Source: Patescibacteria group bacterium (GTDB lineage: Bacteria; Patescibacteriota; JAQUNI01). From it: a stretch of DNA of 64,000 bases. The stretch is taken from NCBI GenBank assembly GCA_028717685.1, contig JAQUNI010000001.1:54306-118305 (forward strand), written 5' to 3'. The translations under genes and the position numbers were made by a program. Below the pieces are notes generated by a model that saw only the letters and a list, made by a program, of their open reading frames with translations, had not been told where the DNA came from and ran no database searches. Positions 446-64,000 of this stretch are shown here, in pieces; the stretch's first letter is position 1, and each line of letters starts with the position of its first letter.

Positions 446-829
446 TTACGAAGTACGAATTATAGTTTTAGTAGTTTTAATGAGGCCATTGATCATTTTA
501 CTAAGTTCAATGGTTTGGGTAGCTACAGGGTCAAAATCTTTATTGCTCAAATAGTTTATATCTCTGGCAATTAACAACTGATTTTGAACCTCGGTTAAGG
601 ATCCTAAAGCGCGGCAATAAAACTGCATCTTCTCTTTATAAGAAGGTCTACTAAATCCTTCAGCAATATTAGAAGTGAAAGAAACGGCTGCTCTCCTTAA
701 TTGGCTAGTTAAACCAAAGATTTCTTCTCTGGGAAATTTTTGGGTGACTTTGTAGATCATCAAGACTAATTTGTGTCCTTCTTTCCAAACTCGCAAATCG
801 GTAAAAGATTTAATTTTATTTTGATCCAT
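446..829 (-). CDS. four-helix-bundle protein (23S rRNA intervening-sequence protein / Avd-like fold family)
   Basis: 127 aa. Shares the conserved core with the two pilus-locus paralogs (W-x-K, LT-Q-RRAAVS-SNIAEG). Lies 10 bp from tRNA-Gln. Confidence 0.6.
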   Translation of the reverse strand: MDQNKIKSFTDLRVWKEGHKLVLMIYKVTQKFPREEIFGLTSQLRRAAVSFTSNIAEGFSRPSYKEKMQFYCRALGSLTEVQNQLLIARDINYLSNKDFDPVATQTIELSKMINGLIKTTKTIIRTS

Positions 830-5789: not shown

Positions 5790-5889
5790 AATAAAAGGCC
5801 CTTTTTTTTATCAATTTAATGAGGTAAAATAGGAGAAGGAATGAAATTATTCTACCTTGAATTACGAAATTCATTTGTCTATTAGCAGG

Positions 5890-5965
5890 CTATTCTCCCT
5901 CCCCCTCCAACTCCCCCTCGGGCAGGGGGAGTGTAATCAAGCTTATCGCTAATAGACGATACATT
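5890..5965. repeat. GC-rich ~76 bp element, copy 1 of 2 (second copy at 26135..26210)
   Basis: ctattctccctccccctcc-aact-ccccctcgggcagggggagtgtaatcaagct..., about 90 percent identical to the second copy; contains the hairpin ccccc-tcgggca-ggggg. Confidence 0.6.
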
Positions 5966-14037: not shown

Positions 14038-14145
14038 TGAAAAAAATTAAAAATGAAAAGTGAAAAATGTAAAATTAAATTGAAAACAATTTTTTCATTT
14101 TAGATTGTGATTTTTAATTTTTCATTTTATATTTTACGTTTTCTA

Positions 14146-18044: not shown

Positions 18045-18181
18045 ATAATTTTCCCTGCGAAAAATTTTCAATTTTCAATTTCTAATTTTTATTAAATTTT
18101 TAATCTTAAAATTTTTAAACATTTAAAATTGATTTATTGAAAATTTAATAAAAATTGAAAATTAGAAATTAAAAATTACTT
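18045..18181. repeat. AT-rich MITE-like element, copy A (terminal inverted repeats aattttcaatttctaattt / aaattagaaattaaaaatt)
   Basis: Left TIR 18070..18088, right TIR about 18160..18178; element ends in aaaattactt directly abutting the ATG of the next gene. Highly similar to copy B. Confidence 0.55.
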
Positions 18182-19933
18182 ATGAAATGGCTCACTAAAT
18201 TTGCTCCTCCTCTTCTGATCACTATAATAGTTTTGGTTTCCTTTTTTTCGGTCCAAAAAGATTCCGCGATTATGGATGAGGTCGCCCATATCCCTGCTGG
18301 CTATTCCTACCTGAAATTTGGAGACTACCGCTTAAATCCCGAGCATCCCCCTTTAGCGAAAATGCTGTCCGCTCTTCCTCTCCTTTTCTTGCACCTCCAA
18401 TTCCCCTTAAACCATCCCACTTGGACAACCGACGTGAATGGTCAATGGGAAGCGGGATATCAGTTTTTATACCACCTTGGCAATGACGCGGATCAAATAC
18501 TCTTTTGGTCGCGCCTGCCGATTATCGCTCTTTTAATCTTGCTGGGGATCTATGTCTGGAAATGGGCAAAAGAGCTCCTGGGGGCAAAATGGGCGCTGGC
18601 GGTTCTGTTTTTGTATGCTTTCTCTCCCACGATTATTGCCCATAGCCACTATGTGACCACTGATTTAGCCGCAACATGTTTTATCTTTATCGCCTTTTAT
18701 TATTTTGTTCATTATTTAAAAAAACCGAGCCTTAAGAATACTCTTTTGGCTGGTCTTGCTCTGGGCTTAGCCGAGGTCGCTAAATTTTCGGCGGTTCTTC
18801 TTTTCCCGTGTTTTGTTCTCCTTGCCCTTATTCCCCTCCTTTTAAACAGGTCTCCCCAAACTTCTTGGCTCAAGCAAACAAAAAACCATATCGGCAAATT
18901 TATCCTCATTTGTTTGATCGCGCTCGGAGTAATCCTTATTGTCTATCAACCCGCGGTCTGGGCTTTCAATTTAGAAAAACAACAAGAATTAATCCGCGGT
19001 TCTATCGGACCGGAAAAAATTGAAAATATTGTGCTCGCTATAAGTAAAATCCCAGGAGCGCAAGGTTTTGCCCAATATATCTTGGGCGTTGTGATGGTCT
19101 TTGCCCGCGTGGGAGGCGGCAACACCAATTACTTCTTGGGTCAGGTTTCTAATCAAGGGTGGTGGTATTATTTCCCAACCTGTTTTTTTCTAAAAGAAAC
19201 AATTTCGGTCTTAATCTTAACAGGATTAGCTTTGCTTTTTGTGATTCGCAAATTTGTCATCAATCTCGTAAAAGACCGTCCGCGCAAATGGCTTCCTTGG
19301 TTTAGGGAATACGCGCTTTGTCATCTGGCGGAAATCTCAATGGTAGTTTTTATCATTGTTTATGGGGTAGTCAGCATGAGAGGCAAACTGAACTTAGGCG
19401 TCCGCCACATTATGGTCCTTTTCCCCTTTATCTATATTTTAATCATTAAAGAATTCAAACGGCGTATAGCAGAAACTGCCTATAAAAAACTTTTCACAGG
19501 AATATTGATTGTTCTCCTTGTTTGGGTTGGCGTGGAAGTCACGATAAATTATCCTTCGTACCTTGCTTATTATAACGAGCTTGGTGGCGGTCCGAAGAAT
19601 GGCTATAAATTGATCACAGATTCCAATCTGGACTGGGGGCAGGATTTAAGACGTATGGCGGAATGGGTGAACGCCAATCCTGAAATCTCAAAAATTAAAG
19701 TAGATTATTTTGGCGGCGGAGTGCCCTCTTATTATCTTGGCGATAAATATCAAGAATGGCATTCGCAAAATGGACCAACAACGGGTTGGATTGCTGTCAG
19801 CGCAAATTATTTTTCTGAAAGTATTTATCGCAAAGATTCCACCTTTGCCACCTCTTACTATTATCTAGAATTAAAAAAGCCCGAAAAAATCTTCGGGCAT
19901 TCCATATTTGTGTATTATATACCGGAGGAATAA
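18182..19933 (+). CDS. GT-C glycosyltransferase family 39 (ArnT/PMT-like), second tandem paralog
   Basis: 583 aa polytopic protein; loop motif MDEVAHIPAGYSY and PEHPPLAKML resemble the ArnT/PMT family. Confidence 0.7.
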   Translation: MKWLTKFAPPLLITIIVLVSFFSVQKDSAIMDEVAHIPAGYSYLKFGDYRLNPEHPPLAKMLSALPLLFLHLQFPLNHPTWTTDVNGQWEAGYQFLYHLGNDADQILFWSRLPIIALLILLGIYVWKWAKELLGAKWALAVLFLYAFSPTIIAHSHYVTTDLAATCFIFIAFYYFVHYLKKPSLKNTLLAGLALGLAEVAKFSAVLLFPCFVLLALIPLLLNRSPQTSWLKQTKNHIGKFILICLIALGVILIVYQPAVWAFNLEKQQELIRGSIGPEKIENIVLAISKIPGAQGFAQYILGVVMVFARVGGGNTNYFLGQVSNQGWWYYFPTCFFLKETISVLILTGLALLFVIRKFVINLVKDRPRKWLPWFREYALCHLAEISMVVFIIVYGVVSMRGKLNLGVRHIMVLFPFIYILIIKEFKRRIAETAYKKLFTGILIVLLVWVGVEVTINYPSYLAYYNELGGGPKNGYKLITDSNLDWGQDLRRMAEWVNANPEISKIKVDYFGGGVPSYYLGDKYQEWHSQNGPTTGWIAVSANYFSESIYRKDSTFATSYYYLELKKPEKIFGHSIFVYYIPEE

Positions 19934-20090
19934 ATTTCTAATTTTCAATTTCTAATTTCTATTAAATTTTTAATTTTAAAATTTTCAAACACCATTAGAA
20001 ATGAAAAATTTCTAGACGGGATAAACCTTTTAAAAATTAATTCATTAGAAATTTAATAAAAATTGAAAATTAGAAATTGAAAATTACTTA
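19934..20090. repeat. AT-rich MITE-like element, copy B
   Basis: Left TIR 19940..19958 and right TIR 20067..20085 are perfect reverse complements; internal sequence near-identical to copy A; right end overlaps the stop codon of the convergent gene. Confidence 0.55.
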
Positions 20091-21136
20091 TAATACACCA
20101 ATCCCTGCACCCTTAAATCAATATAGTATTTAATTTCTTTATTATTTTTCCCAATATCCTCTTTGAAAACTAAGGTTAAAGCTTCAAGTTGGTTTTGCAA
20201 GCTCTGTCTAGTGTCAAAAAATATTTGATAACCTTTGTCCGTTTTTATATACAAGTCGCGGGAATCAGAAATCGGCACAATGAATTCTTGGATTTTCAAA
20301 TCCGTCTTTAGAGATAACAAATCCCGCACTTGAAAAAGGAAACTTAAAAAAGAGGGGTCTAAAATCTGCTCGCGCGGTTCTACTTTTTTAAAAGACTGAT
20401 CATAAAGAACGGGTAATCCCTTTTCCCATACCGTTTCCTCGGGAATTTCCTCGCCGATTATTCCTTCCGCATCTAAAAAGTGATAAAGAATAGTGGGATT
20501 TTCGGGATAGGAGGTTGGAGTCAAGATGGCTTGTGACTCTTTATCTTTAACTTCCCCGATTTCCTCCCTACTCGTAGAATCACTGGCAAAAGCTTCAGGG
20601 GGTAAAAATAAATCCTGCGGCGCGCCATTTGCCCAAATCGCTTTCGGCTCCCTCTCGGTAATGATAATTTTTAAAACATCGGGGAATTCTTTTTTAATGT
20701 CTATTTTCTCAATCTGGGCAAAATGGGCATAGATTACGCTGCTTAAATGCTTTTTACCCGCAATAATCAAATTTTCTTTGGGAAAAATAAAGGCGCGTCC
20801 CTTTAAATTCTCGCGCGCCAAATTTTCCACATCTTCACCCTTGACATTAACATTGCCTACCACTACAATCTCCTTGATTTGCCAGAACGGAAAAAAGAAT
20901 AAAAAATAAACAAGCGAACCTAACGCAAGCAAAAAAAGGAAAAAGGCAATTTTCCGCTGCAAATGTCCCGAAGCCTCGCGGACGCGAAAACGAGGAGTCG
21001 CGAGATAAATCCTCGGGCTCGCTAAGGTCCGCTTTTTCCTAAAAAACCCGCGTTTCCACTCCACTTTCCTTTTGCGGGATTTTTGTTTATACGGGTTTAA
21101 GTATAATTTTTTGCGGCTGGGTTTATGAGAAAACAC
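20084..21136 (-). CDS. FtsQ/DivIB-like cell division protein (POTRA domain)
   Basis: 350 aa; basic N-terminus, one TM helix, then POTRA-like IKEIVVVGNVNVKGEDVENL. The ORF starts with GTG; the true start may be further in. Confidence 0.5.
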   Translation of the reverse strand: MFSHKPSRKKLYLNPYKQKSRKRKVEWKRGFFRKKRTLASPRIYLATPRFRVREASGHLQRKIAFFLFLLALGSLVYFLFFFPFWQIKEIVVVGNVNVKGEDVENLARENLKGRAFIFPKENLIIAGKKHLSSVIYAHFAQIEKIDIKKEFPDVLKIIITEREPKAIWANGAPQDLFLPPEAFASDSTSREEIGEVKDKESQAILTPTSYPENPTILYHFLDAEGIIGEEIPEETVWEKGLPVLYDQSFKKVEPREQILDPSFLSFLFQVRDLLSLKTDLKIQEFIVPISDSRDLYIKTDKGYQIFFDTRQSLQNQLEALTLVFKEDIGKNNKEIKYYIDLRVQGLVYYK

Positions 21137-21751: not shown

Positions 21752-21904
21752 AAGTTGCGGATTTTTTTATAAGAATTGAAATATGATTTTTCACGATGCG
21801 ATTTCCCAAACACTTGCTCTGTGATTAATCTTCTGCTTTAATATAAACAGGTTTGTTCCTAAATGCACCCTTAATGCACCTTGAATATCTTCAGGAGGTG
21901 AAAA

Positions 21905-22165
21905 ATGGCGGAAGGTTTAAATATAAAACTAAGCCCTGTCCAAAGCTTAACAGCAAGAATAATCGCTGGAAAAGAAAATATGACAGGAGAAGAAATAATA
22001 ACTGTCGCCCTAAACCTATATGAAACCGTACAGGGTGAGCTAGACTCATCACCTGACCGAGTAACCTTAGCGTTGGTGAAAAACGATGGAGAAATTTACA
22101 AGGAAATAATTCTCCCTAACCATATTCCTATACTACCCGCCCACACCGATATAATTTCAATATAA
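21905..22165 (+). CDS. small ribbon-helix-helix-like protein (paralog 1)
   Basis: 86 aa with AGGAGGTG ribosome-binding site; N-terminal strand-helix-helix pattern; alignable to the next ORF (L-I-S...ALxxL...EL-S...LALV...KEIxLP). Confidence 0.45.
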   Translation: MAEGLNIKLSPVQSLTARIIAGKENMTGEEIITVALNLYETVQGELDSSPDRVTLALVKNDGEIYKEIILPNHIPILPAHTDIISI

Positions 22166-22193
22166 AAACCATCATCTTAAGGGAGGTTTAACA

Positions 22194-22469
22194 ATGTCAG
22201 AGTTGAGTATCACATTTAGTAAGAACTGGAGTGCCGAGATAACAAGAATGGCTGAAAAAAGGGGAATAGAACCAAAAAACTTGATTTTAGACGCGCTGAC
22301 TGTATTATCAGCCTTAGAAGAAGAACTAGCTTCTGGAGAGGGAAAACAAGGTTTAGCTTTAGTAAGCCCCCGTTTCCGAATCAGAAAAGAAATAGTGCTT
22401 CCCCGTTATTCCTCTAAACTATTAACAAAGAATGCGCTCACAATAGAGCCCACACTCGCCGTAGACTAA
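22194..22469 (+). CDS. small ribbon-helix-helix-like protein (paralog 2)
   Basis: 91 aa with GGGAGG ribosome-binding site; ITFSKNWSAEITRMAEKRGIEPKNLILDAL resembles a CopG/Arc-type RHH. Confidence 0.45.
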   Translation: MSELSITFSKNWSAEITRMAEKRGIEPKNLILDALTVLSALEEELASGEGKQGLALVSPRFRIRKEIVLPRYSSKLLTKNALTIEPTLAVD

Positions 22470-22499
22470 AAGCTACGGTTTTTTTATTCTACTAGACCC

Positions 22500-22640
22500 T
22501 TCTCCGCCTCCCGCTTCCCAAGGGGAGAGGAGTTATTATCCCCTCCTTTCCAAGGAGGGGCTAGGGGAGGTTCTGAGTCAGAACCCCACCCATCCTCCCC
22601 TTGGAAAGGGGAGGTGGGGGGAGAAAGGAAGGGGTCTTTC
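22500..22640. repeat. GC-rich imperfect palindrome / hairpin cluster (probable bidirectional terminator)
   Basis: Hairpins cccctcc-tttccaa-ggagggg and cctcccc-ttggaaa-ggggagg arranged around the perfect palindrome ggttctgagtcagaacc, between the island and the convergent serS. Confidence 0.5.
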
Positions 22641-26068: not shown

Positions 26069-26134
26069 TTTGTTATTGTGGGAGATTTTTCCTCCTCTTG
26101 ACCTGCGGGAGACAGGGAGGGGTCTAATAAATGA

Positions 26135-26210
26135 CTATTCTCCCTCCCCCTCCGCCTCCCCCTCGGGCAGGGGGAGTGTAATCAAGCTCCTCGTTAATAG
26201 ATGACATATT
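26135..26210. repeat. GC-rich ~76 bp element, copy 2 of 2
   Basis: ctattctccctccccctcc-gcct-ccccctcgggcagggggagtgtaatcaagct..., near-identical to 5890..5965. Confidence 0.6.
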
Positions 26211-32559: not shown

Positions 32560-32624
32560 AATTTGGAATTAGGAATAGAGAATAATGAATAAGGAATAAG
32601 GAATTCTGAAAGTTACGCAATTCC

Positions 32625-32675
32625 TAAAAAAGGAGTAAGCAGAAATCTAAGGCAAACGCTTAACTCCTGCTTCCT
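32625..32675 (-). terminator. intrinsic terminator after proS
   Basis: On the minus strand: GGAGTTAAGC...GCTTACTCC stem (one bulge) followed by T6. A related sequence occurs after mrdA at 27833..27885. Confidence 0.5.
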
Positions 32676-32699
32676 AATTCCTGATTCCTGATTCCCAAC

Positions 32700-46994: not shown

Positions 46995-47102
46995 AAATTC
47001 GGAATTAGGAATAGGGAATTATGAATCATGAATCAGAAATTAGGAAGCGAGGAAAAAAGCTGTTCATCTTTATTCCTGATTCCTGATTCCCACTTCCTTT
47101 AG

Positions 47103-47561: not shown

Positions 47562-47640
47562 AATGTTGGAATTAGGAATTGTGAATCAGGAATTAGGAAA
47601 GAAGAAAAAAGGCTATTCATCTTTATTCCTTATTCAGATT

Positions 47641-48030: not shown

Positions 48031-48132
48031 AAAATTGGAATTGTGAATTATGAATTATGAATTATGAAATTTGACAGCACATTCTTAATTTTAGATTTTC
48101 GCGATTCGTAATTCGTAATTCTAGATTCGGTG

Positions 48133-50736: not shown

Positions 50737-51096
50737 CTAAAAATTTTTCTTTTTATATTTTTTTAAAAGTTGATTTAATATTTTCAATAAAGGTTTTCGC
50801 CAATCATCTTCTAACTGAGATTTGATGAGTTGCACTAATATCTTATCTCCTGAAGTCAGATGCAATTTTTCCAACTTTTTACATTGAGCTAAAATTTCAA
50901 AATCAATATCGGTGGCTAAAACATATTTGCTTTTCTCTAATGGGGTTAACTGAAACTGCTTTGTCAATCTCTGTTTTCTTCTTTGAAGTAATTCCTGATA
51001 ATGCCTATCTTCTTTTAAAACTTTTCTTAATTTATATCCCTGATATCCTAGATTCAGATAAAAATCTTCAATCGCTTGCATTGATTTCTCTTGCAT
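50737..51096 (-). CDS. hypothetical protein
   Basis: 119 aa basic ORF immediately downstream of the FtsA-like gene on the same strand. Confidence 0.4.
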   Translation of the reverse strand: MQEKSMQAIEDFYLNLGYQGYKLRKVLKEDRHYQELLQRRKQRLTKQFQLTPLEKSKYVLATDIDFEILAQCKKLEKLHLTSGDKILVQLIKSQLEDDWRKPLLKILNQLLKKYKKKNF

Positions 51097-54166: not shown

Positions 54167-54437
54167 TCCTCGCCCCAATAATCTGAAACCGTAATATATC
54201 GCACTAAAAGAAACGATCGGCGTAAAACATAAGTTTAATTATCAAAAAGGCTTTAAAGCACCATAAATCCCGCGCCTTTGCGAGCGGAATAAAAAGACCT
54301 TGGAAGGTAAGGGATTTTTTGATACCTAACTTGCCTAACGGCAGGTATTCTTCTCTAAAAGGCACGAGATAAACCATTCATCTCTAATGAATAGTTTTTT
54401 TTAAATTAAAAAACCTAGCAAAAAATGCTAGGGTAAT

Positions 54438-57312: not shown

Positions 57313-59061
57313 ATGAAGGACAAATTAAAAAACGATACAGTCAATTCCAACGGGGTGAAATTTGACGACAAAACAATAAAGAAGATTCTCTTAAAAGGGA
57401 ACTATATTACTGAAGAAGATGTTAAGAACGCGGATGATTTTGCCACAACGCACCAAGTGTCATTCATAGGGTATCTGCTCCAAGAAAATCTCATCACCAA
57501 GGACCTCTTGGGGCAGGCGATTGCCGAATCGTTCAAGGTTCCCTACGCTGACTTAAATTCAGCACCACCCGCACCTCTGCAGGTGCAAAAAATTCCGGAG
57601 GAGACCGCGAAAAAATATCACGCGGTTATTTTCGCTGAAGAAAAAAACAAAACCGTAGTCGCCACCGATAATCCAGAAGATCCAACACTCCTGCCGGAAT
57701 TAGAAAAGCTGTTTGTCGGCAGGAGGTTGAGCATTGTCTATTCGCTGACCGAGGACATCAACGCGAGCTTTGTGCATTATCAAAAGCCGCTTGAAACCCG
57801 CTTCTCTAAGATTATTGAGAGCAAAGGGCGAGTCGCGCCAGAGCTTTTGGAAGAAATTTTTGATGACGCGCTCGTATATCATGCCTCCGACATCCATTTT
57901 GAACCCAGGCAGAAAGATGTGCTTGTGCGGTTTCGCATTGACGGCGTTTTACAAGAAACCGGCAGGATCCCCAAAGAATATTACGAAAATATTCTTAATC
58001 GCATCAAGGTGCAAAGCGGTTTGCGCATTGATGAACACTTTGCCGCGCAAGACGGTTCGCTCCGGTATGAACCCTCCTCCTTTAAAGCTTCCTCCTACGC
58101 TAACGCTCCAGCGGGCAAAAAGGATAGCGTTGTTGTTGACCTTAGAACCTCAGTTGTCCCCACTGTTGAAGGAGAAAAAGTGGCATTGCGCGTACTCTCG
58201 GCATATGTGCAAGGATTTTCTCTTGGTGATCTTGGTCTTTCGCCGGCACATCAGCAGATACTTGAGCAAGCCGCCACAAAACCATTTGGCATGATTCTCG
58301 TAGCAGGTCCCACTGGTTCCGGAAAAACCACTACGCTTTACGCACTTTTGAAACTTGTAAATAGCCCAGAGGTGAACATCACCACTATTGAGGACCCGGT
58401 GGAGTACAGGGTGCTCGGCGTGAATCAAATTCAAATCAATCCTCTAACAAATCTCACTTTTGCCAAAGGACTGCGTTCTATCGTCCGCCAAGACCCGGAT
58501 ATTATTCTGGTCGGCGAGATTCGCGACGAAGAAACAGCAGAAATCGCCGTAAATGCGGCACTCACCGGCCATCTTCTCTACTCCACATTTCACGCCAACG
58601 ATGCCGCTACCGCCATTCCTCGGCTTCTGGATATGGGCATTGAACCGTTTCTTTTGGCTTCCACGCTTGAGGTTATTGTCGCCCAGCGACTCGTGCGTAA
58701 AATTTGCGAACATTGCCGGCATAGTGTTACCAAATCGGCAAATGATTGGAAGACGCCTCAGCTTCGGTCAGTTATGCCATATCTTTCCAAAAAGTCGATC
58801 ACGCTCTATGAAGGGAAGAAGTGCGAGATGTGCGGCTATACGGGGTACAAAGGACGAACTGCTATTTTTGAATTCATCCAAATCACTCCGGAGATGCGGA
58901 ATCTCATCTTACACTCCCCGTCAACTAAAGAAATCTGGCAACTCGCCAGTAAGGATGGTTCAAAAACACTTTTTGAAGACGGCATTGAAAAAGTTAAGAC
59001 TGGAGTAACCACAATAGAAGAGCTGCTTCGCGTCGCCGAACCGCCGCAGAAGAGTGGGTAG
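57313..59061 (+). CDS. pilB: type IV pilus assembly ATPase PilB (GspE family)
   Basis: 582 aa: N-terminal GSPII_E N1 domain, Walker A VAGPTGSGKTTT, Asp/His boxes, tetracysteine motif (CEHC...CEMC). Confidence 0.9.
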   Translation: MKDKLKNDTVNSNGVKFDDKTIKKILLKGNYITEEDVKNADDFATTHQVSFIGYLLQENLITKDLLGQAIAESFKVPYADLNSAPPAPLQVQKIPEETAKKYHAVIFAEEKNKTVVATDNPEDPTLLPELEKLFVGRRLSIVYSLTEDINASFVHYQKPLETRFSKIIESKGRVAPELLEEIFDDALVYHASDIHFEPRQKDVLVRFRIDGVLQETGRIPKEYYENILNRIKVQSGLRIDEHFAAQDGSLRYEPSSFKASSYANAPAGKKDSVVVDLRTSVVPTVEGEKVALRVLSAYVQGFSLGDLGLSPAHQQILEQAATKPFGMILVAGPTGSGKTTTLYALLKLVNSPEVNITTIEDPVEYRVLGVNQIQINPLTNLTFAKGLRSIVRQDPDIILVGEIRDEETAEIAVNAALTGHLLYSTFHANDAATAIPRLLDMGIEPFLLASTLEVIVAQRLVRKICEHCRHSVTKSANDWKTPQLRSVMPYLSKKSITLYEGKKCEMCGYTGYKGRTAIFEFIQITPEMRNLILHSPSTKEIWQLASKDGSKTLFEDGIEKVKTGVTTIEELLRVAEPPQKSG

Positions 59062-59067
59062 TAGGAT

Positions 59068-59084
59068 TAGTTGGTAGTTTGTAG
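59068..59084. repeat. left inverted repeat flanking four-helix-bundle gene 1
   Basis: tagttggtagtttgtag is the perfect reverse complement of 59468..59484. Confidence 0.7.
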
Positions 59085-59103
59085 TGAGTAGTTAGTAGTA
59101 AAT

Positions 59104-59463
59104 ATGAAAATTGAATCGTACGAAAATTTAATTGTGTGGCAAAAGTCAATGGATCTGGTGATTGCTGTTTATGCATTGACAGAAAAATTTCCAAAAGAAG
59201 AACTATACGGTTTAACTTCACAAATGCGCCGCGCAACTGTTTCAGTTCCTTCCAATATTGCGGAAGGTAGTAGGCGTGGTTCTCGAAAAAATTTTAGAAA
59301 TTTTTTACTCAATGCGTATGGTTCCAGTGCAGAGCTTGGGACTCAGATCAAAATCGCGAAACGGCTTTCATACGGAAAAACCAAAAATTATGAGCAAGCG
59401 GATGCACTGCTTGATGAAGTAATGCGCATGTTAGACAAATTGACGTATGGGCTCAAAGAATAA
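59104..59463 (+). CDS. four-helix-bundle protein (23S rRNA IVS-protein / Avd-like fold family), copy 1
   Basis: 119 aa (MKIESYENLIVWQKSMDLV...LTSQMRRATVSVPSNIAEG); about 92 percent identical to the copy at 61765..62124. Confidence 0.7.
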   Translation: MKIESYENLIVWQKSMDLVIAVYALTEKFPKEELYGLTSQMRRATVSVPSNIAEGSRRGSRKNFRNFLLNAYGSSAELGTQIKIAKRLSYGKTKNYEQADALLDEVMRMLDKLTYGLKE

Positions 59464-60886
59464 AAGTCTACAAACTACCAACTACAAACTACAAACTATC
59501 TTCCTAGGCAAAGAACGGGACTATTTTATTGAGAATTTAAGCATGCTGGTCGCCGCTGGCATGCCGATTTTGGGCGTTCTCGACTCCATTGCCAAAGAAC
59601 TGCGCTCGCGCCGCATGAAAAAAATTCTTGCTCTTATTCGGGAATATATTGAATCTGGCTCGCCAATTTGGAAAGCGCTTCAAACAACTAACCTGTTTGC
59701 CGACCACACTATCTCGCTTATCCGCCTTGGCGAAGAATCGGGAAAGCTTACGGAGAACTTAAAAGTGGTCGCGAATGAACAAGAAAAAAATCGGGTGTTC
59801 CACTCCAAGCTTCGTTCCGCCATAATGTATCCTGTATTCGTACTCTCACTCACGGTCATTATCGGTGTGGGCATTGCGTGGTTTATTTTGCCCAAGCTGG
59901 CGCTGGTGTTTGCCCAGCTTAAAATAACCTTGCCCCTTATCACAAAAATTTTGATCGGATCGGGAACATTTCTTGGCGAATATGGCCAATACGTCGTGCC
60001 CGCGGCAGTTATAGCAATATCAGTTATTTTTTTCTTTATTTTCTCATTTCCAAAAACAAAATTTATCGGGCAATTTATTTTATTTTCTTTGCCCGGCGTT
60101 AAACAACTTATTAAGGAAGTGGAGCTGGCGCGGCTCGGTTATCTTTTAGGCACGCTTCTTGACGCTGGACTGCCGGTAACCCAAGCGCTCAACTCGCTCG
60201 CAAGCGCTACCGAGATTGCGCCATACAAAAAACTCTACAAACACCTGCGCGACTCGGTAGAAGACGGCAATCCGTTCCGGAAAAGCTTTATTTCCTTTAA
60301 GCGCACTAATCATCTTATTCCCGAACCTATTCAGCAACTCATCGTCGCTGGTGAACAGTCAGGCACTCTTTCAGCAACTCTTCTTAAAATCGGAGAGACT
60401 TATGAAGCTAAAGCGGACACGACGACAAAAAATTTGACCGTGATTCTGGAGCCGATATTACTCGTCATCGTGTGGCTCGGCGTTGTAGCCGTGGCGTTAG
60501 CAGTGATTTTGCCAATCTACAGCCTTATCGGCGGATTTAACGCCAACCAGCCCGCAGCGGCACAGCCTCCTCCTGCCGAAGAACAGGTAATCAGTCCGCC
60601 GCCAAGTGTGGAAACAACAGCTCCAGATACAGAAACCGTGGAAGTAATACCCCCTCCGGATACAGAAATCATAGAGAAAAAACCAACAACGCTCCGCGTT
60701 CTTCCCACTAGCGTAGGGTATCTTAACGTGCGCGAGAAACCATCATTAACAAGTAAAATCGTCACGCGCGTTAAGCCGGGTGAAACATTTGAATACACTG
60801 AAAAAAACGAGAGCTGGTATAAAATTATTTTGCCGGATGGCAATTCCGGATGGGTGTTTGAAAAATATGTTGAAGAAAATGAATAA
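59447..60886 (+). CDS. pilC: type IV pilus platform protein PilC (GspF family) with C-terminal SH3b-like domain
   Basis: 479 aa: two GspF repeats and three TM segments, then a Pro/Thr/Glu-rich linker and an SH3b-like domain (YLNVREKPSLTSKIVTRVKPGETFEY...WYKI...GWV). ATG overlaps the 4HB stop. Confidence 0.85.
   Translation: MGSKNKSLQTTNYKLQTIFLGKERDYFIENLSMLVAAGMPILGVLDSIAKELRSRRMKKILALIREYIESGSPIWKALQTTNLFADHTISLIRLGEESGKLTENLKVVANEQEKNRVFHSKLRSAIMYPVFVLSLTVIIGVGIAWFILPKLALVFAQLKITLPLITKILIGSGTFLGEYGQYVVPAAVIAISVIFFFIFSFPKTKFIGQFILFSLPGVKQLIKEVELARLGYLLGTLLDAGLPVTQALNSLASATEIAPYKKLYKHLRDSVEDGNPFRKSFISFKRTNHLIPEPIQQLIVAGEQSGTLSATLLKIGETYEAKADTTTKNLTVILEPILLVIVWLGVVAVALAVILPIYSLIGGFNANQPAAAQPPPAEEQVISPPPSVETTAPDTETVEVIPPPDTEIIEKKPTTLRVLPTSVGYLNVREKPSLTSKIVTRVKPGETFEYTEKNESWYKIILPDGNSGWVFEKYVEENE
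59468..59484. repeat. right inverted repeat flanking four-helix-bundle gene 1 (also encodes the N-terminus of PilC)
   Basis: ctacaaactaccaacta; read in the pilC frame it encodes LQTTNYKLQT. Confidence 0.7.
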
Positions 60887-61038
60887 ACAAAACTAACAAA
60901 TGACACATAACATCTGACACATGACATTTGACACATATGAAACAAAAAAAATTATAGGAAAATAAAAGGGCATCGTCAGATGTTAGGTATCAGATGTTCC
61001 AAAAGGGTTTACCCAGCACCACTTTTTAGATTATAAAC

Positions 61039-61731
61039 ATGTATTACGTCTATACCTTAATTAGTAAGTTAAAAAATAAGACAGAAATATATATTGGATC
61101 AACAAATGATCTGAGAAGAAGACTAAGAGATCATAATAATGGTAAAGAAAGATCTACAAAACGTTATAGGACGTGGAATCTGATTTACTACGAAGCATAT
61201 ATAACAGAGAGTCTAGCAAGATTAAGAGAAAAACGATTGAAACATCACGGAAATGCGATGAAAGAATTAAAAAAAAGAATCGGATTATCCGAATGGAAAA
61301 GTGGTGCTGGGTTTACCTTGCTGGAAGTTCTTCTCTCTATCGCGGCGATCGCGATTATCGCCGTAATTTCTATTCCCATTTATCAGTCGTTTCAGGTGCG
61401 AAACGATCTTGATATCGCGACCATGGAAATTGCCCAAACTTTGCGGCGCGCGCAAGTACTTTCCCAAGCGGTTGATGGCGACACAAGCTGGGGCGTTTCT
61501 CTCGCAAGCGGAAATATCACGCTTTTTAAGGGCGTAAGTTACGCCACCCGCGATACCAATTTTGATGAAGTGTTTGATGTATCAACAAATATCACTCCAT
61601 CGGGACCTTCCGAAATCGTGTTTGTAAAATTTACAGGCTTACCACAGACCACGGGGACAATAATGCTATCCTCCAATATGAATGAAACGAGAAATATAGT
61701 AATTAACCAGAAGGGAATGGTTAATTATTAG
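61039..61731 (+). CDS. GIY-YIG nuclease domain fused in frame to a type IV prepilin
   Basis: 230 aa. Residues 1-90 are a complete GIY-YIG domain (YYVYTL...IYIGSTNDLRRRLRDHN...YYE...E). Residues 74-91 look like a prepilin leader (MKELKKRIGLSEWKSGAG) followed by the cleavage/methylation motif G/FTLLEV and a hydrophobic helix. Confidence 0.7.
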   Translation: MYYVYTLISKLKNKTEIYIGSTNDLRRRLRDHNNGKERSTKRYRTWNLIYYEAYITESLARLREKRLKHHGNAMKELKKRIGLSEWKSGAGFTLLEVLLSIAAIAIIAVISIPIYQSFQVRNDLDIATMEIAQTLRRAQVLSQAVDGDTSWGVSLASGNITLFKGVSYATRDTNFDEVFDVSTNITPSGPSEIVFVKFTGLPQTTGTIMLSSNMNETRNIVINQKGMVNY

Positions 61732-61736
61732 TTGGT

Positions 61737-61752
61737 AGTTTGTAGTGGGTAG
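61737..61752. repeat. left inverted repeat flanking four-helix-bundle gene 2
   Basis: agtttgtagtgggtag is the perfect reverse complement of 62129..62144. Confidence 0.7.
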
Positions 61753-61764
61753 TTGGTAGTAAAT

Positions 61765-62124
61765 ATGAAAATTGAATCATACGAAAATTTAATTGTGTGG
61801 CAAAAGTCAATGGATTTAGTGATTGCTGTTTATGCATTGACAGGAAAATTTCCAAAAGCAGAACTATACGGTTTAACTTCACAAATGCGCCGCGCGGCTG
61901 TTTCAATTCCTTCCAATATCGCGGAGGGGAGCAGGCGCGGTTCTCGGAAGGATTTTAGAAATTTTTTACTCAATGCGTATGGTTCTGGTGCAGAGCTTGA
62001 AACTCAAGTTAAAATTGCGAAACGACTTTCATACGGAAAAACCAAAGATTATGAGCAGGCGGACGCGCTGCTCGATGAAGTAATGCGCATGTTAAACAAA
62101 TTGACGTATGGGCTCAAAGAATAA
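61765..62124 (+). CDS. four-helix-bundle protein (23S rRNA IVS-protein / Avd-like fold family), copy 2
   Basis: 119 aa from the ATG at 61765 (the ORF track starts at an upstream TTG). Ten substitutions relative to copy 1. Confidence 0.7.
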   Translation: MKIESYENLIVWQKSMDLVIAVYALTGKFPKAELYGLTSQMRRAAVSIPSNIAEGSRRGSRKDFRNFLLNAYGSGAELETQVKIAKRLSYGKTKDYEQADALLDEVMRMLNKLTYGLKE

Positions 62125-62746
62125 AAATCTACCCACTACAAACTACAAACTACCCACTCAACAAGGCTTCAGCCTTGTTGAAGTTATTCTCGCCAGCGCG
62201 GTGTTTGTTTTGTTCGTTACCGCGCTTGTCGGAGCGTACCTCTATGGGCAGGAGTCAACCGCGCTTGCCGGCAATCGCGCGCGCGCGACGATTCTTGCCG
62301 AAGAAGGGCTTGAGGCAGTGCGCAATATCCGCGATGCCGGATTTTCTAATCTCACCGACGGCACCTACGGATTGGCTGTTGTCGGCAACCAATGGGCGTT
62401 ATTCGGAACATCAGACACAACGGGTATTTTTACCCGCCAAATTACAATTTCCGCTGTAGATTCAGAACGAAAAAGCGTGACTGCGAATGTCGCTTGGCAA
62501 CAAAATGCCCAGCGCCCGGGAGCAGTTGCCCTGACGACCTATCTTACTAACTGGAAAAAGGCGACTCCTGTCAATTCCTGCGATATTTACTGCCAGTTGT
62601 TGGGAACCTATACCACTGGTACCTGTCGGGAAAATTCCCAACAATGTACTAAGTATGACGAGATTTATGAGGCGGGCGGTGATCCTATTTGTGTGACTAG
62701 TTTTCCTGGCGACGCCAGCCATGATACTTGTTGCTGCAAACCATAA
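62108..62746 (+). CDS. type IV pilin-like protein with Cys-rich C-terminus
   Basis: 212 aa: leader MGSKNKNLPTTNYKLPTQQG, cleavage motif G/FSLVEV (Glu at +5), hydrophobic helix; eight Cys in the last 55 residues. ATG overlaps the 4HB copy 2 stop. Confidence 0.7.
   Translation: MGSKNKNLPTTNYKLPTQQGFSLVEVILASAVFVLFVTALVGAYLYGQESTALAGNRARATILAEEGLEAVRNIRDAGFSNLTDGTYGLAVVGNQWALFGTSDTTGIFTRQITISAVDSERKSVTANVAWQQNAQRPGAVALTTYLTNWKKATPVNSCDIYCQLLGTYTTGTCRENSQQCTKYDEIYEAGGDPICVTSFPGDASHDTCCCKP
62129..62144. repeat. right inverted repeat flanking four-helix-bundle gene 2 (encodes part of a prepilin leader)
   Basis: ctacccactacaaact; in the pilin frame it encodes LPTTNYKL. Confidence 0.7.
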
Positions 62747-62751
62747 TTTAG

Positions 62752-62823
62752 GGATTAGTTTGTAGTGAGTAGTTGGTAGGTTGTAGTTTTCTACTCACTA
62801 CTCACTACAAACTACAAACTAAC
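62752..62823. repeat. inverted-repeat hairpin of the leader-coding motif with no gene in the loop
   Basis: agtttgtagtgagtagttggtag...ctactcactactcactacaaactacaaact: the same arms that flank the 4HB genes, here adjacent, just upstream of the pilin ATG at 62824. Confidence 0.6.
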
Positions 62824-63348
62824 ATGCTACCAACTACAAACTACCAACTACAAACCCAGCGTGGCTTCACGCTAATTGAACTGCTTCTCTATGTTGCCGT
62901 TGCGTCGGCGATACTTTTGGCGATTTCGGTTTTTCTTTCAATCCTCCTTCAGTCGCGCATCAAAAATCAAACTATCGCTGAAGTGGAACAGCAGGGGCTT
63001 CAAGTTATGCAACTCGTTACGCAAACCGCGCGCAACGCCGAGGCAATCACCTCGCCAGCGCAGGGCGCAAGCGCTTCATCTTTGACGCTTGACGTTATTT
63101 CTGCTGCCAGTGACCCCACTATTTTTGATCTCGCAAGCGGCGCGATTCGCGTCAAAGAAGGGGCTGGTTCAGCTACCGCTCTTACTAATTCTCGCGTTAC
63201 CGCTTCCGCTCTCACATTCCAAAATCTCTCTCGCACCGACACTCCGGGCACGGTTCGCGTCCAATTCACCCTCGCACATACAAATCCAGAAGGCAGAAAT
63301 GAATACTCATTTACTAAAACATTTATCGGCTCTGCGAGCCTGCGCTAG
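62824..63348 (+). CDS. type IV pilin-like protein
   Basis: Start taken at ATG 62824 (ORF track: 62773). Leader MLPTTNYQLQTQRG, cleavage motif G/FTLIEL (Glu at +5), hydrophobic helix LLYVAVASAILLAISVF. Confidence 0.7.
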   Translation: MLPTTNYQLQTQRGFTLIELLLYVAVASAILLAISVFLSILLQSRIKNQTIAEVEQQGLQVMQLVTQTARNAEAITSPAQGASASSLTLDVISAASDPTIFDLASGAIRVKEGAGSATALTNSRVTASALTFQNLSRTDTPGTVRVQFTLAHTNPEGRNEYSFTKTFIGSASLR

Positions 63349-63480
63349 TCATAATGCGGCAAATGCCGCAACGACTGACACTTGATACCTAGCACCTGAC
63401 AACTGACCACTAACATCTAACATTTTGTTAGGTGTCAGATGCCAAATGTCAGGTGTTAGGTGCTAGGTGTCAAGTGTTAA

Positions 63481-63927
63481 TTGTATAGAACCAGGTTATT
63501 CACACTCATGATTATTTTAAAATATAAAAAGTGTTATAATAAACAGGAGGATGGGTTCATTACCCTAATAAGTGTCTTGGTGGTTGGAGCGGTTGGAATA
63601 GCCCTCACAATTTCCGTGATTTTGCTCGGGCTTGGGTCGTCGCGAACAAGTTTTACGAATGAGCAGTCAAACCAAGCGAAAGCCCTCACTAACGCCTGTG
63701 CCGAAGAAGCTCTTCAGCAAATTCGTGATTCTGTGAATTTTGAAGGTACCGGTAGCCTTACTTTAGGTCTGGGCAGCTGCACCTATACCGTGACCAAACT
63801 TGTTAGCCAGAACCGAACCGTCACCGCCAGCGGGACAGTGGGAACAATCATAAGAAAAGCAAGTATTGCTCTTGATACAATCAGACCGAGCATCAACATC
63901 ACTTCCTGGCAAGAGGTGGCTGATTAG
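63481..63927 (+). CDS. minor pilin/pseudopilin-like protein
   Basis: 148 aa: G/FITLIS followed by a hydrophobic helix (VLVVGAVGIALTISVILLG); Ser instead of Glu at +5. True start is probably an internal Met. Confidence 0.5.
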   Translation: MYRTRLFTLMIILKYKKCYNKQEDGFITLISVLVVGAVGIALTISVILLGLGSSRTSFTNEQSNQAKALTNACAEEALQQIRDSVNFEGTGSLTLGLGSCTYTVTKLVSQNRTVTASGTVGTIIRKASIALDTIRPSINITSWQEVAD

Positions 63928-64000
63928 TTAGTAGTTTGTAGTGAGTAGTGAATAAAAAACTACCAACTAACACGCTACCAACTACAAGCTAAATAAACAT
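63928..64000. repeat. further copy of the pilin-leader inverted-repeat motif at the window edge
   Basis: agttagtagtttgtagtgagtagtg...ctaccaactaacacgctaccaactacaagc; probably precedes another pilin-like gene beyond the window. Confidence 0.45.

Follow-up and report, generated by a model that had tools for sequence, protein, structure and literature searches.

Between the second and third pilin genes of a type IV pilus (pil) operon in a Patescibacteria group bacterium, two complementary arrays of 7-nt units lie side by side and form a hairpin. We estimate at roughly 0.65 the probability that this hairpin is a member, lacking the open reading frame (ORF), of a family of heptamer palindromes that is associated with PF05635 genes, resembles the intervening sequences (IVSs) of 23S rRNA genes and donates stop codons, start codons and N-terminal peptides to adjoining genes. 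The DNA analysed (the window) is a 64,000-nt stretch, positions 54,306 to 118,305 of contig JAQUNI010000001.1 (assembly GCA_028717685.1); coordinates are those of the window, and features lie on the plus strand unless noted. The arms of the family follow the patterns (TAGTKNG)n on the 5' side and (CTACNAA)n on the 3' side, and its full form carries a PF05635/TIGR02436 gene, coding for a four-helix bundle (4HB) protein, in the loop. The pil operon occupies 57.3-64 kb and encodes PilB (57313-59061), PilC (59447-60886) and pilins 1-4. The relatives of the window PilB are Parcubacteria-group metagenome-assembled genomes with identities of at most 79%.

The focal hairpin fills the spacer between the pilin 2 stop codon (62746) and the pilin 3 ATG (62824). 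Its 5' arm (62755-62786) reads TAGTTTG TAGTGAG TAGTTGG TAGGTTG TAG, about 4.5 heptamers with TAG in each, and its 3' arm (62791-62822) reads CTACTCA CTACTCA CTACAAA CTACAAA CTAA, ending 1 nt short of the pilin 3 ATG. The arms are 78% complementary and 4 nt apart (TTTT, 62787-62790). The RNA fold of 62750-62826 reached -33.9 kcal/mol (z-score -6.5), and none of 200 dinucleotide shuffles was as stable. The main stem of 24 bp pairs 62756-62780 with 62790-62814, leaving 62781-62789 as the loop of the minimum free energy (MFE) fold; the longer stretch 62747-62870 folded with a z-score of -4.95. The hairpin is real and non-random, and the first-pass annotation of this DNA, which had described directly adjoining arms forming a hairpin upstream of the pilin at 62824, was right on this point. 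It was also right that the arm sequence runs on into the pilin 3 leader: a second 3'-type arm (R', 62827-62855) follows the ATG and encodes the leader residues PTTNYQLQT. R' is 83% complementary to 62758-62786, which makes an alternative pairing possible, one that is unused in the MFE fold. Prepilin 3 (62824-63348) has the leader MLPTTNYQLQTQRG/FTLIEL and a Pfam N_methyl prepilin motif at residues 11-34, and its orthologue is the third pilin of the related loci L032, L003 and L027. An Rfam scan of the window found tRNA only, and the focal hairpin matched no RNA family.

The arms of the focal hairpin belong to the same family as those bracketing two 4HB genes of the operon, as had been proposed. 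The 3' arm taken with the inter-arm TTTT (62787-62822) is complementary to 59067-59102 (92%) and to 61728-61763 (86%), the 5' arms of the two genes. The 17-mer TAGTTTGTAGTGAGTAG occurs 19 times with up to three mismatches against 0.08 expected; all occurrences lie within 59068-63991, those on the plus strand all in 5' arms and those on the minus strand all in 3' arms. The first ORF-bearing copy (59065-59498) lies between pilB and pilC and consists of a 5' arm (59065-59102), a 4HB gene with the PF05635 domain (59104-59463) and a 3' arm (59468-59498), which falls within PilC codons 8-17, while the PilC ATG (59447) sits inside the 3' end of the 4HB gene. This copy is closed by a terminal stem, and the whole element folded at -132.9 kcal/mol (z-score -5.3). 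The second ORF-bearing copy (61726-62158), between pilins 1 and 2, has its 5' arm at 61726-61763 with the pilin 1 stop TAG inside, its 4HB gene at 61765-62124 and its 3' arm at 62129-62158 within the pilin 2 leader; here too the downstream ATG (62108) is embedded in the 3' end of the 4HB gene. The two copies are 91% identical, and the repeat shared by them (D1) begins at the 5' arm, i.e., arms and ORF were duplicated together. Both sister copies thus hold a PF05635 ORF in the loop (59104-59463 and 61765-62124), whereas the loop of the focal hairpin (4-9 nt) holds none.

A further ORF-less copy was found between pilins 4 and 5 (63922-63991); the first-pass annotation had noted this arm pair at 63928-64000. 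Its 5' arm contains the pilin 4 stop TAG, its loop GAATAAAAAA is similar to the 4HB 3' end, and its 3' arm has CTAACACG at the position of the focal CTAACATG. Completed with a window-identical Logan contig that reaches 135 nt past the window end, it folded at -29.2 kcal/mol (z-score -3.3), and the heptamers continue beyond the window, where they encode the ..LQTTNYKPQTHKG/FTLIE of pilin 5. The arm family has four copies in the pil operon, two with and two without the ORF; the terminal stems of the tested copies are 24-31 bp long (z-scores -5 to -6.5). The start of pilin 5 is unusual in itself. From the stop codon upstream to the G/F site, its sequence (..LQTTNYKPQTHKG/FTLIEILLVVAAIAILAG; L030 1800-1900, corresponding to window 63975 to ~64075) is devoid of ATG, GTG and TTG codons in frame; ACG stands where the focal module has ATG, and the single in-frame start candidate is ATA. 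The L030 contig stops soon after this region, probably because paralogous pilins share that sequence.

The conserved leader peptide of these pilins is a translated repeat. TTNYKLQ is the translation of ACT ACA AAC TAC AAA CTA CAA, that is, of three ACTACAA heptamers (21 nt). The ACTACAA array is free of stop codons in all three frames, and its complement TTTGTAG gives TAG in every frame within three units. Stop codons of upstream genes lie inside the 5' arms for pilin 1 (61729-61731) and pilin 4 (63925-63927), and the PilB stop lies 3 nt ahead of an arm. The 3' arms extend into the N-termini of PilC (MGSKNKSLQTTNYKLQT), pilin 2 (MGSKNKNLPTTNYKLPT), pilin 3 and pilin 5, and the ATGs of PilC and pilin 2 sit within the final codons of the 4HB genes. 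The 5' arm of this TAGTTTG family thus provides the stop codon of the gene ahead of it or lies next to that stop, and from the 3' arm of the CTACAAA family PilC and pilins 2 and 3 receive their start codon along with the N-terminal peptide ..TTNYKLQT... Pilin 5, which has the peptide and lacks a canonical in-frame start, is probably supplied by a 3' arm as well. In PilC the repeat-encoded part lies ahead of the first T2SSF domain, which starts at residue 27. In the element-free relative L003, the PilC N-terminus (MPQETLQRKFFNIGLGREREYF) and the pilin leaders (MKKVRLHTKKG/F and MKKQKIKINSG/F) are unrelated to the repeat, and the leaders and PilC N-terminus of the element-free L027 are likewise unrelated; we therefore conclude that the repeat replaced native N-terminal sequence. 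Prepilin leaders tolerate replacement because they are cleaved off.

The first-pass annotation had taken the motif for a conserved pilin leader reused as a structural repeat. The arm sequence does double as leader-coding sequence, but the causality is reversed, the repeat having invaded the leaders. Nor is the motif a pilin-specific peptide: PilC, a non-pilin, carries the same TTNYKLQ-type peptide, as does a sensor kinase of a Niyogibacteria locus described below, and palindromes also occur between the S13, S11 and S4 genes and at mreB and recR. We also considered whether 3' arms are generally free of stops and 5' arms rich in them; no asymmetry was seen in the 12 elements testable with fixed windows, and the pattern holds for the CTACAAA family only.

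The same arm family was found in other genomes. In loci L032-L041, which are of the Parcubacteria GW2011_GWC2_44_17 type, a 79%-identical 4HB gene with TAGTTTG/CTACAAA arms (36 nt, 89% complementary) occupies the same slot between pilins 1 and 2, with the pilin 2 ATG again in the 4HB 3' end (MNKNLQTTHYKLQTSNG/FSLVEV). This slot is 4HB-occupied in two further lineages as well (L128 and the P0013 contig; range of 4HB identity, 77-79%), and in L128 the arms are also of the same family and the pilin 2 ATG also lies in the 4HB 3' end. At the other junctions L032 departs from the window: between pilB and pilC it has only a diverged ORF-less heptamer inverted repeat, ahead of pilin 3 (leader MLPTTNYNLKSYKLQANSG/F) only the vestige of a 5' arm, which forms no stable hairpin, and between pilins 4 and 5 no element. 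Occupancy therefore differs between lineages, junction by junction. The leader motif in a relative without an upstream inverted copy, which the first-pass annotation had named as evidence against its own reading, is largely what L032 pilin 3 presents, given its vestigial 5' arm.

Outside pil operons, the same arms flank a 4HB gene of 79% identity in the Niyogibacteria locus L131, where it is placed between genes for a dCache protein and a sensor histidine kinase. The 4HB gene is followed by a hairpin (-27.6 kcal/mol, z-score -4.5), then by CTAACCATG, and then by open heptamers that start the kinase, whose N-terminus is MKLPTTTYPLQTTHYKL..., also given as MKLPTTTYPLQTTHYKLISLVLILAV... This arrangement aligns with 62755-62855 as the same module of hairpin, ATG and open heptamer array. 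It is thus the element that encodes the peptide and attaches it to any downstream gene; the peptide is not a pilin feature. In L131 (1187-5366) the element lies between a dCache-only ORF and a kinase with a weak dCache match of its own; a sensor gene may have been split by the insertion or given a new head.

The direction of change between ORF-bearing and ORF-less forms was approached by sequence comparison. The second ORF-less copy reads GTAGTGAGTAGTGAATAAAAAACTAC at 63940-63965, and its L032 counterpart between pilins 2 and 3 reads GCAGTGAGCAGTGAATGAAAAACTAC. Beside its 3' arm the window copy keeps GAATAAAA, which corresponds to the last codon, stop and spacer of the 4HB gene (..AAAGAATAAAAGTCTAC), and GAAT(A/G)AAAAA beside the 3' arm is common to both. 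The retained stop region suggests that these copies may have arisen by internal deletion of the ORF. The two 4HB genes of the window differ from each other by a pS (proportion of synonymous differences) of 0.27 and from the L032 copy by 0.53-0.55; together with the ORF-less junction of pilB and pilC in L032, this pattern suggests that an ORF may have been acquired at a pre-existing palindrome, or that gene conversion may have taken place between the copies. Both loss and gain of the ORF probably occur. The earlier description of the focal hairpin as an empty site or excised module holds insofar as it is the ORF-less counterpart of the 4HB arms; excision has some support in the remnant of the sister copy, and the L032 pilB|pilC junction supports gain of the ORF as well.

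The focal hairpin is one of a genome-wide population of intercistronic heptamer palindromes and not a device specific to pilins. Tracts of at least three tandem 7-nt units in which period 7 dominates were counted. The window contains 33 such strict tracts, 29 of them mostly intergenic although intergenic DNA makes up 16.6% of the window, and 20 of its 59 spacers hold at least one. In many of these spacers paired tracts form a palindrome that fills the spacer from stop to start codon. The unit varies by site (GGAATTA, AAAAATG, AATTTTC, AAGTTAA, AAAGTGT and TGACAYN, among others), and the sites include housekeeping positions such as those between the S13, S11 and S4 genes and upstream of mreB, recR and glycosyltransferase genes. 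Within the pil operon, palindromes of a second unit type (TGACAYN/GTCAGAT) lie between pilC and the GIY-YIG::pilin 1 gene (60893-60998) and, as a long one (63371-63484), in the spacer of pilins 3 and 4, which folds at -74.5 kcal/mol. Of the 59 genes, 18 begin directly after a heptamer array (e.g., 14038-14145, 46995-47102, 47562-47640, 48031-48128 and 32560-32699). Motifs resembling the Shine-Dalgarno (SD) sequence precede 0 of these 18 genes and 6 of the 41 others, a difference short of significance (p = 0.16), given how rare SD motifs are across the window. The palindromes fall into dispersed families whose members have conserved loops as well: 47015-47082 and 47568-47635 share 84% identity, and 18062-18183 and 19932-20091 share 90-92%, loops included. 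Such palindromes are therefore copies and not independent local inventions. The density of period-7 tracts is 4.4 per 10 kb in the window vs. 0.23 in the pil loci of 27 related genomes. Heptamer copy number was unchanged in a strain of 99.8% identity (L001).

PF05635 genes and heptamer inverted repeats are associated well beyond this operon. The loop genes score far above the curated cutoffs (Pfam PF05635, 132.6 bits vs. 33.8; TIGR02436, 124.7 bits vs. 24), their nearest solved structure is Xanthomonas XCC0516 (PDB 2GSC, E = 7.5e-26), and their dN/dS of 0.14-0.20 shows purifying selection. A third 4HB gene in the window (446-829, 42% identical to copy 1) lies on the minus strand in an element at 441-873 with an ACGAATT-type heptamer inverted repeat; a tRNA gene of the same orientation (365-436) lies 10 nt from its end, and the 3' heptamer arm overlaps the last codons of the 4HB gene. 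We then surveyed the flanks of 4HB genes in 80 metagenomic loci with homologues of 46-63% identity. A flanking inverted repeat with a score of at least 30 was present at 58 of 82 testable copies (45 of 69 when independent metagenomic ones are counted), against 1 of 100 other genes of the same loci. The arms are heptamer arrays whose unit is different at almost every locus, with the cross-locus consensus AG(T/G)G(G/A)T(Y); an in-phase AG every 7 nt marks the 5' arm in 54, and an in-phase CT the 3' arm in 53, of the 75 copies. We dropped the idea that the orientation of AG and CT arms with respect to the ORF is informative, since any palindrome shows it automatically and the sole real asymmetry is the predominance of AG first. 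Away from the 4HB gene itself, 4HB-bearing loci hold 1.9-4.4 heptamer tracts per 10 kb vs. 0.23 in 4HB-free pil loci, and tracts of period 6, 8 or 9 stay at background level (at most 0.35 per 10 kb). ORF-less heptamer hairpins near 4HB genes were seen in many of the surveyed loci. The association is strong and specific, and flanking heptamer inverted repeats are a general trait of PF05635 genes across phyla. The lone positive among the control genes was a 149-aa PrgI-family ORF (L045 1656-2181) on a 4HB-bearing contig; its flanking heptamer repeat shows that heptamer palindromes can therefore bracket other small genes.

A search of 72,556 plasmids gave matches to the 4HB protein that were nearly all cyanobacterial. 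Heptamer inverted repeats bracket the 4HB gene in plasmids of Nostoc edaphicum, N. punctiforme and Picosynechococcus. The gene lies between cas10 and cmr3 on a Picosynechococcus PCC 7003 plasmid (L126) and between ribonucleotide reductase (RNR) subunit genes on N. edaphicum pNe_5 (L125), heptamer-flanked in both, and the inverted repeats of these two plasmids folded at up to -90 kcal/mol. On pANA02 of Anabaena sp. 90 (L123) a 4HB gene with a weaker repeat lies between cas6 and cas4. PF05635 ORFs have also been described in rRNA insertions of the Candidate Phyla Radiation (CPR) (10.1101/2024.02.27.582315). In the literature searched, a link of four-helix-bundle/S23 proteins to heptamer repeats was not found, and the nearest report is of incidental heptamers in the Coxiella IVS (PMC4990558). 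Both rRNA IVSs and heptamer repeats are known kinds of element in their own right.

On the favored explanation, the palindrome family would have colonised the pilus operon, both in its intercistronic spacers and at 5' coding ends that are dispensable. Its copies may spread and exchange the ORF by recombination or gene conversion between shared arms, and internal deletion would at times remove the ORF. The stem would fold the insertion aside in the polycistronic pil transcript and so preserve translational coupling; the pilin 2 stop and the pilin 3 start are each ~9 nt from the stem base, so coupled translation could continue. By analogy with IVS stems, the stem is a plausible RNase III substrate, its length being compatible with cleavage, or it may protect RNA ends. 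Several observations weigh against this explanation. The focal loop TTTT carries no ORF remnant, and the 3' arm open in all frames is peculiar to this arm family and not to the whole palindrome class. Folds of the sense and antisense strands are about equally stable (42:30 among 4HB elements, p = 0.04; 7:6 among window hairpins), therefore nothing singles out the mRNA strand, and G-U counts likewise gave no clear sign of selection on the RNA; the palindromes might work, or just originate, as DNA. Cleavage of the stem in ORF-bearing copies would sever the PilC and pilin 2 start codons from their genes. At these elements no transposase was identifiable, and no target-site duplication either, because the element ends grade into heptamers. 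No population-level presence/absence variant was seen among the independent assemblies and the L032 population.

A tentative alternative, to which we give a low probability, is that the focal hairpin never held an ORF and is an unoccupied landing site, the 4HB gene entering the loops of palindromes by arm homology in a homing-like gene conversion. The remnant-free loop fits this, as do the excess of ORF-less palindromes, which are far more numerous than 4HB genes in the window, the diverged ORF-less repeat between pilB and pilC in L032 at the position of a 4HB copy in the window, and the closer relationship of the two window 4HB genes to each other than to the L032 copy. However, an identical pS pattern would result if two old copies had undergone gene conversion with each other, arms and ORF were duplicated together, and the sister ORF-less copy and its L032 counterpart keep the 4HB stop-codon region (GAAT(A/G)AAAAA-CTAC), which points to deletion. 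It is rather unlikely, in our estimate, that the arrays are binding sites for a DNA- or RNA-binding protein, possibly the 4HB pentamer, with the hairpin serving as an operator or insulator of pilin 3. Relatives of the 4HB protein, the Avd proteins, bind nucleic acid, and the strict 7-nt phase with its AG/CT dinucleotide is kept across very different units. The 4HB genes, which are under purifying selection, share contigs with heptamer tracts, and arrays abut start codons; a Nostoc study reports that heptamer repeats affect expression and postulates a binding partner (10.1101/2022.06.06.494920). Against these points, the units differ widely among the hairpins of one genome, yet just two 4HB types occur in 64 kb, and the co-occurrence on contigs is confounded by taxonomy. 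A broader idea, doubtful at present and of about the same low standing as the landing site, joins the two components: PF05635 proteins and heptamer palindromes might be one widespread two-part system, in which the protein would recognise its own 7-nt-phased arrays in DNA or RNA and promote their copying, maintenance or processing. The ORF-type rRNA IVSs, the heptamers of cyanobacteria, Beggiatoaceae and Xanthomonas and the CPR hairpins would then be the same element, and the focal hairpin a non-autonomous form served in trans by the neighboring 4HB genes.

Two further explanations are far less probable. The first-pass annotation had suggested that the arms are recombination sites by which pilin cassettes are shuffled or switched, as in antigenic or phase variation. 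Arms of one family at four junctions of the pilin array, together with the GGCTTCACGCTAATTGAA that pilins 3 and 5 share directly after the arms, make homologous exchange physically possible. However, the window, L032, L003 and L027 have five distinct pilins in the same order with one-to-one orthology, the orthologues of window and L032 being 69-75% identical. They are different minor pilins, as opposed to versions of a single gene, and the array has no set of partial or silent copies that exchange segments as in pilE/pilS systems. Contigs from two sequencing runs (L030 and L031) match the window at 100% identity over both ORF-less hairpins and from pilC to pilin 1, and break only inside repeated 4HB sequence. 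In the L032 population the junction irregularities are scaffold N-gaps and contig ends, plus an unrelated pilC deletion. The structural variants proposed as a check, alleles with and without the 4HB gene and cassette rearrangements, did not appear in the assemblies of the window and L032 populations, a comparison whose power is limited by short-read assembly. The same palindrome class also lies between ribosomal-protein genes. Given the conserved pilin order and the lack of structural variants, cassette shuffling is unsupported, and we consider it extremely unlikely. Hardly more credible is a transcription terminator or attenuator between pilin transcription units. A stable stem-loop does stand between two genes, but no T/U run follows the stem (tail CAAACTAACATG), a terminator scan does not call the hairpin, and equivalent hairpins lie between the S13, S11 and S4 genes, which are normally one co-transcribed operon.

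Among known systems, the IVSs of 23S rRNA in Coxiella burnetii and Leptospira come closest to the IVS-like family favored here. They share a PF05635 ORF in the loop, an inverted-repeat stem of ~28 bp and heptamers upstream of the ORF. In Coxiella, RNase III cuts the 28-bp terminal stem of the IVS, which also contains an S23p ORF and, directly upstream of this ORF, three to four GACAGAT heptamers in variable copy number (PMC4990558). Both elements fold as one unit (-133 kcal/mol for copy 1 here, -143 for Coxiella), and ORF-less versions exist on both sides, the short Salmonella IVSs being those of the rRNA side. Unlike rRNA IVSs, which sit in helix 9, 25 or 45 of 23S rRNA, the elements here lie between protein-coding genes of an mRNA operon (flanked by pilin genes, pilB and pilC), their arms overlap coding sequence and supply stops, a start and an N-terminal peptide, and excision by RNase III would harm the ORF-bearing copies.

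Reports of heptamer repeats date back to about 1990. The units that we take to be those of STRR1 (CCCCAGT) and STRR3 (CAACAGT) fit the AGTNNNN phase found in this analysis, and the complement of TAACTGA fits it as well. Intergenic heptamer repeats of unknown function occur in Beggiatoaceae (TAACTGA), cyanobacteria and Bacteroidetes (PMC4679880), and others in Nostoc and in Xanthomonas (GGGAATC), with 70 convergent inverted pairs in X. campestris (PMC4692102). They resemble the arrays described here in their 7-nt units, their strongly intergenic location, their frequent ending at a start codon without a Shine-Dalgarno sequence and their inverted pairs. By contrast, a link to PF05635 is absent from those papers (PMC4679880; PMC4692102), and here the host belongs to the Patescibacteria, the unit differs between sites and tracts in the window are commonly arranged as palindromic pairs.

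Repetitive extragenic palindromic (REP) sequences and bacterial interspersed mosaic elements (BIMEs) with their REP-associated tyrosine transposases (RAYTs) are alike in being scattered extragenic palindromes within operons and in having a small gene bracketed by inverted copies. Intercistronic REPs modulate the stability of mRNA segments. In our case the bracketed gene encodes a non-enzymatic four-helix bundle and not a Y1/HUH transposase, and the repeats are heptamers of many units. The Correia elements of Neisseria are dispersed ORF-less inverted repeats, co-transcribed with their neighbors and with stems that RNase III can cleave. The elements described here share the dispersed ORF-less inverted-repeat form with these and other MITEs (miniature transposable elements with inverted repeats), but have no identifiable target-site duplication or parent transposase, and their parent form carries the 4HB gene. 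Finally, the 4HB protein has a fold homologous to that of the Avd proteins of diversity-generating retroelements (DGRs), with a match to PF22296 (bAvd; PMC10053308). Its score against the DGR Avd equivalog NF033474 is 32 bits, below the cutoff of 80; the neighbors of the 4HB copies are pilus genes, and no reverse transcriptase or template/variable repeats were noticed beside them, although no dedicated search was made.

For the pil locus, these results remove the tempting reading as pilin-cassette shuffling and trace an odd conserved leader motif to the repeat that encodes it. Cleavable prepilin leaders and the PilC N-terminus appear to have been overwritten by a selfish palindrome, which now provides their start codons. 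IVS-type elements would accordingly not be confined to rRNA genes. To our knowledge, no role is known for the abundant "23S rRNA IVS / four helix bundle" protein family. The heptamer repeats of cyanobacteria, Xanthomonas and Beggiatoaceae are likewise without an accepted function or binding partner (PMC4692102; PMC4679880; 10.1101/2022.06.06.494920). The difference between 45 of 69 4HB genes and 1 of 100 controls merges the two puzzles into one testable question, and this broader association is the part most worth further study.

Some other features of the window were recorded. Repeats of another kind are present at 5877-5965 and 26122-26210 (89 nt, 85% identity), with a G+C-rich palindrome CCCCCTCGGGCAGGGGGAG and runs of a CCCTCC hexamer, and the spacer at 21752-22639 also contains a long G+C-rich palindrome. 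A 119-aa ORF (50737-51096) lies between two non-complementary heptamer tracts of the AAACTCA and TAACTTT types; it has no Pfam or NCBIfam match, and independent assemblies break right beside it. In pilin 1 (61039-61731) a complete GIY-YIG nuclease domain (residues 1-75) precedes the pilin part as an in-frame fusion, with the prepilin motif from residue 90, and therefore the whole nuclease would be a cleavable "leader". Its orthologues in relatives have short leaders, e.g., MKNAG/F in L032. The GIY-YIG part of this gene is bracketed by a 35-nt inverted repeat of 80% complementarity (60992-61026 and 61297-61331), the right arm of which is the coding sequence of the pilin cleavage site (KSGAGFTLLEV).

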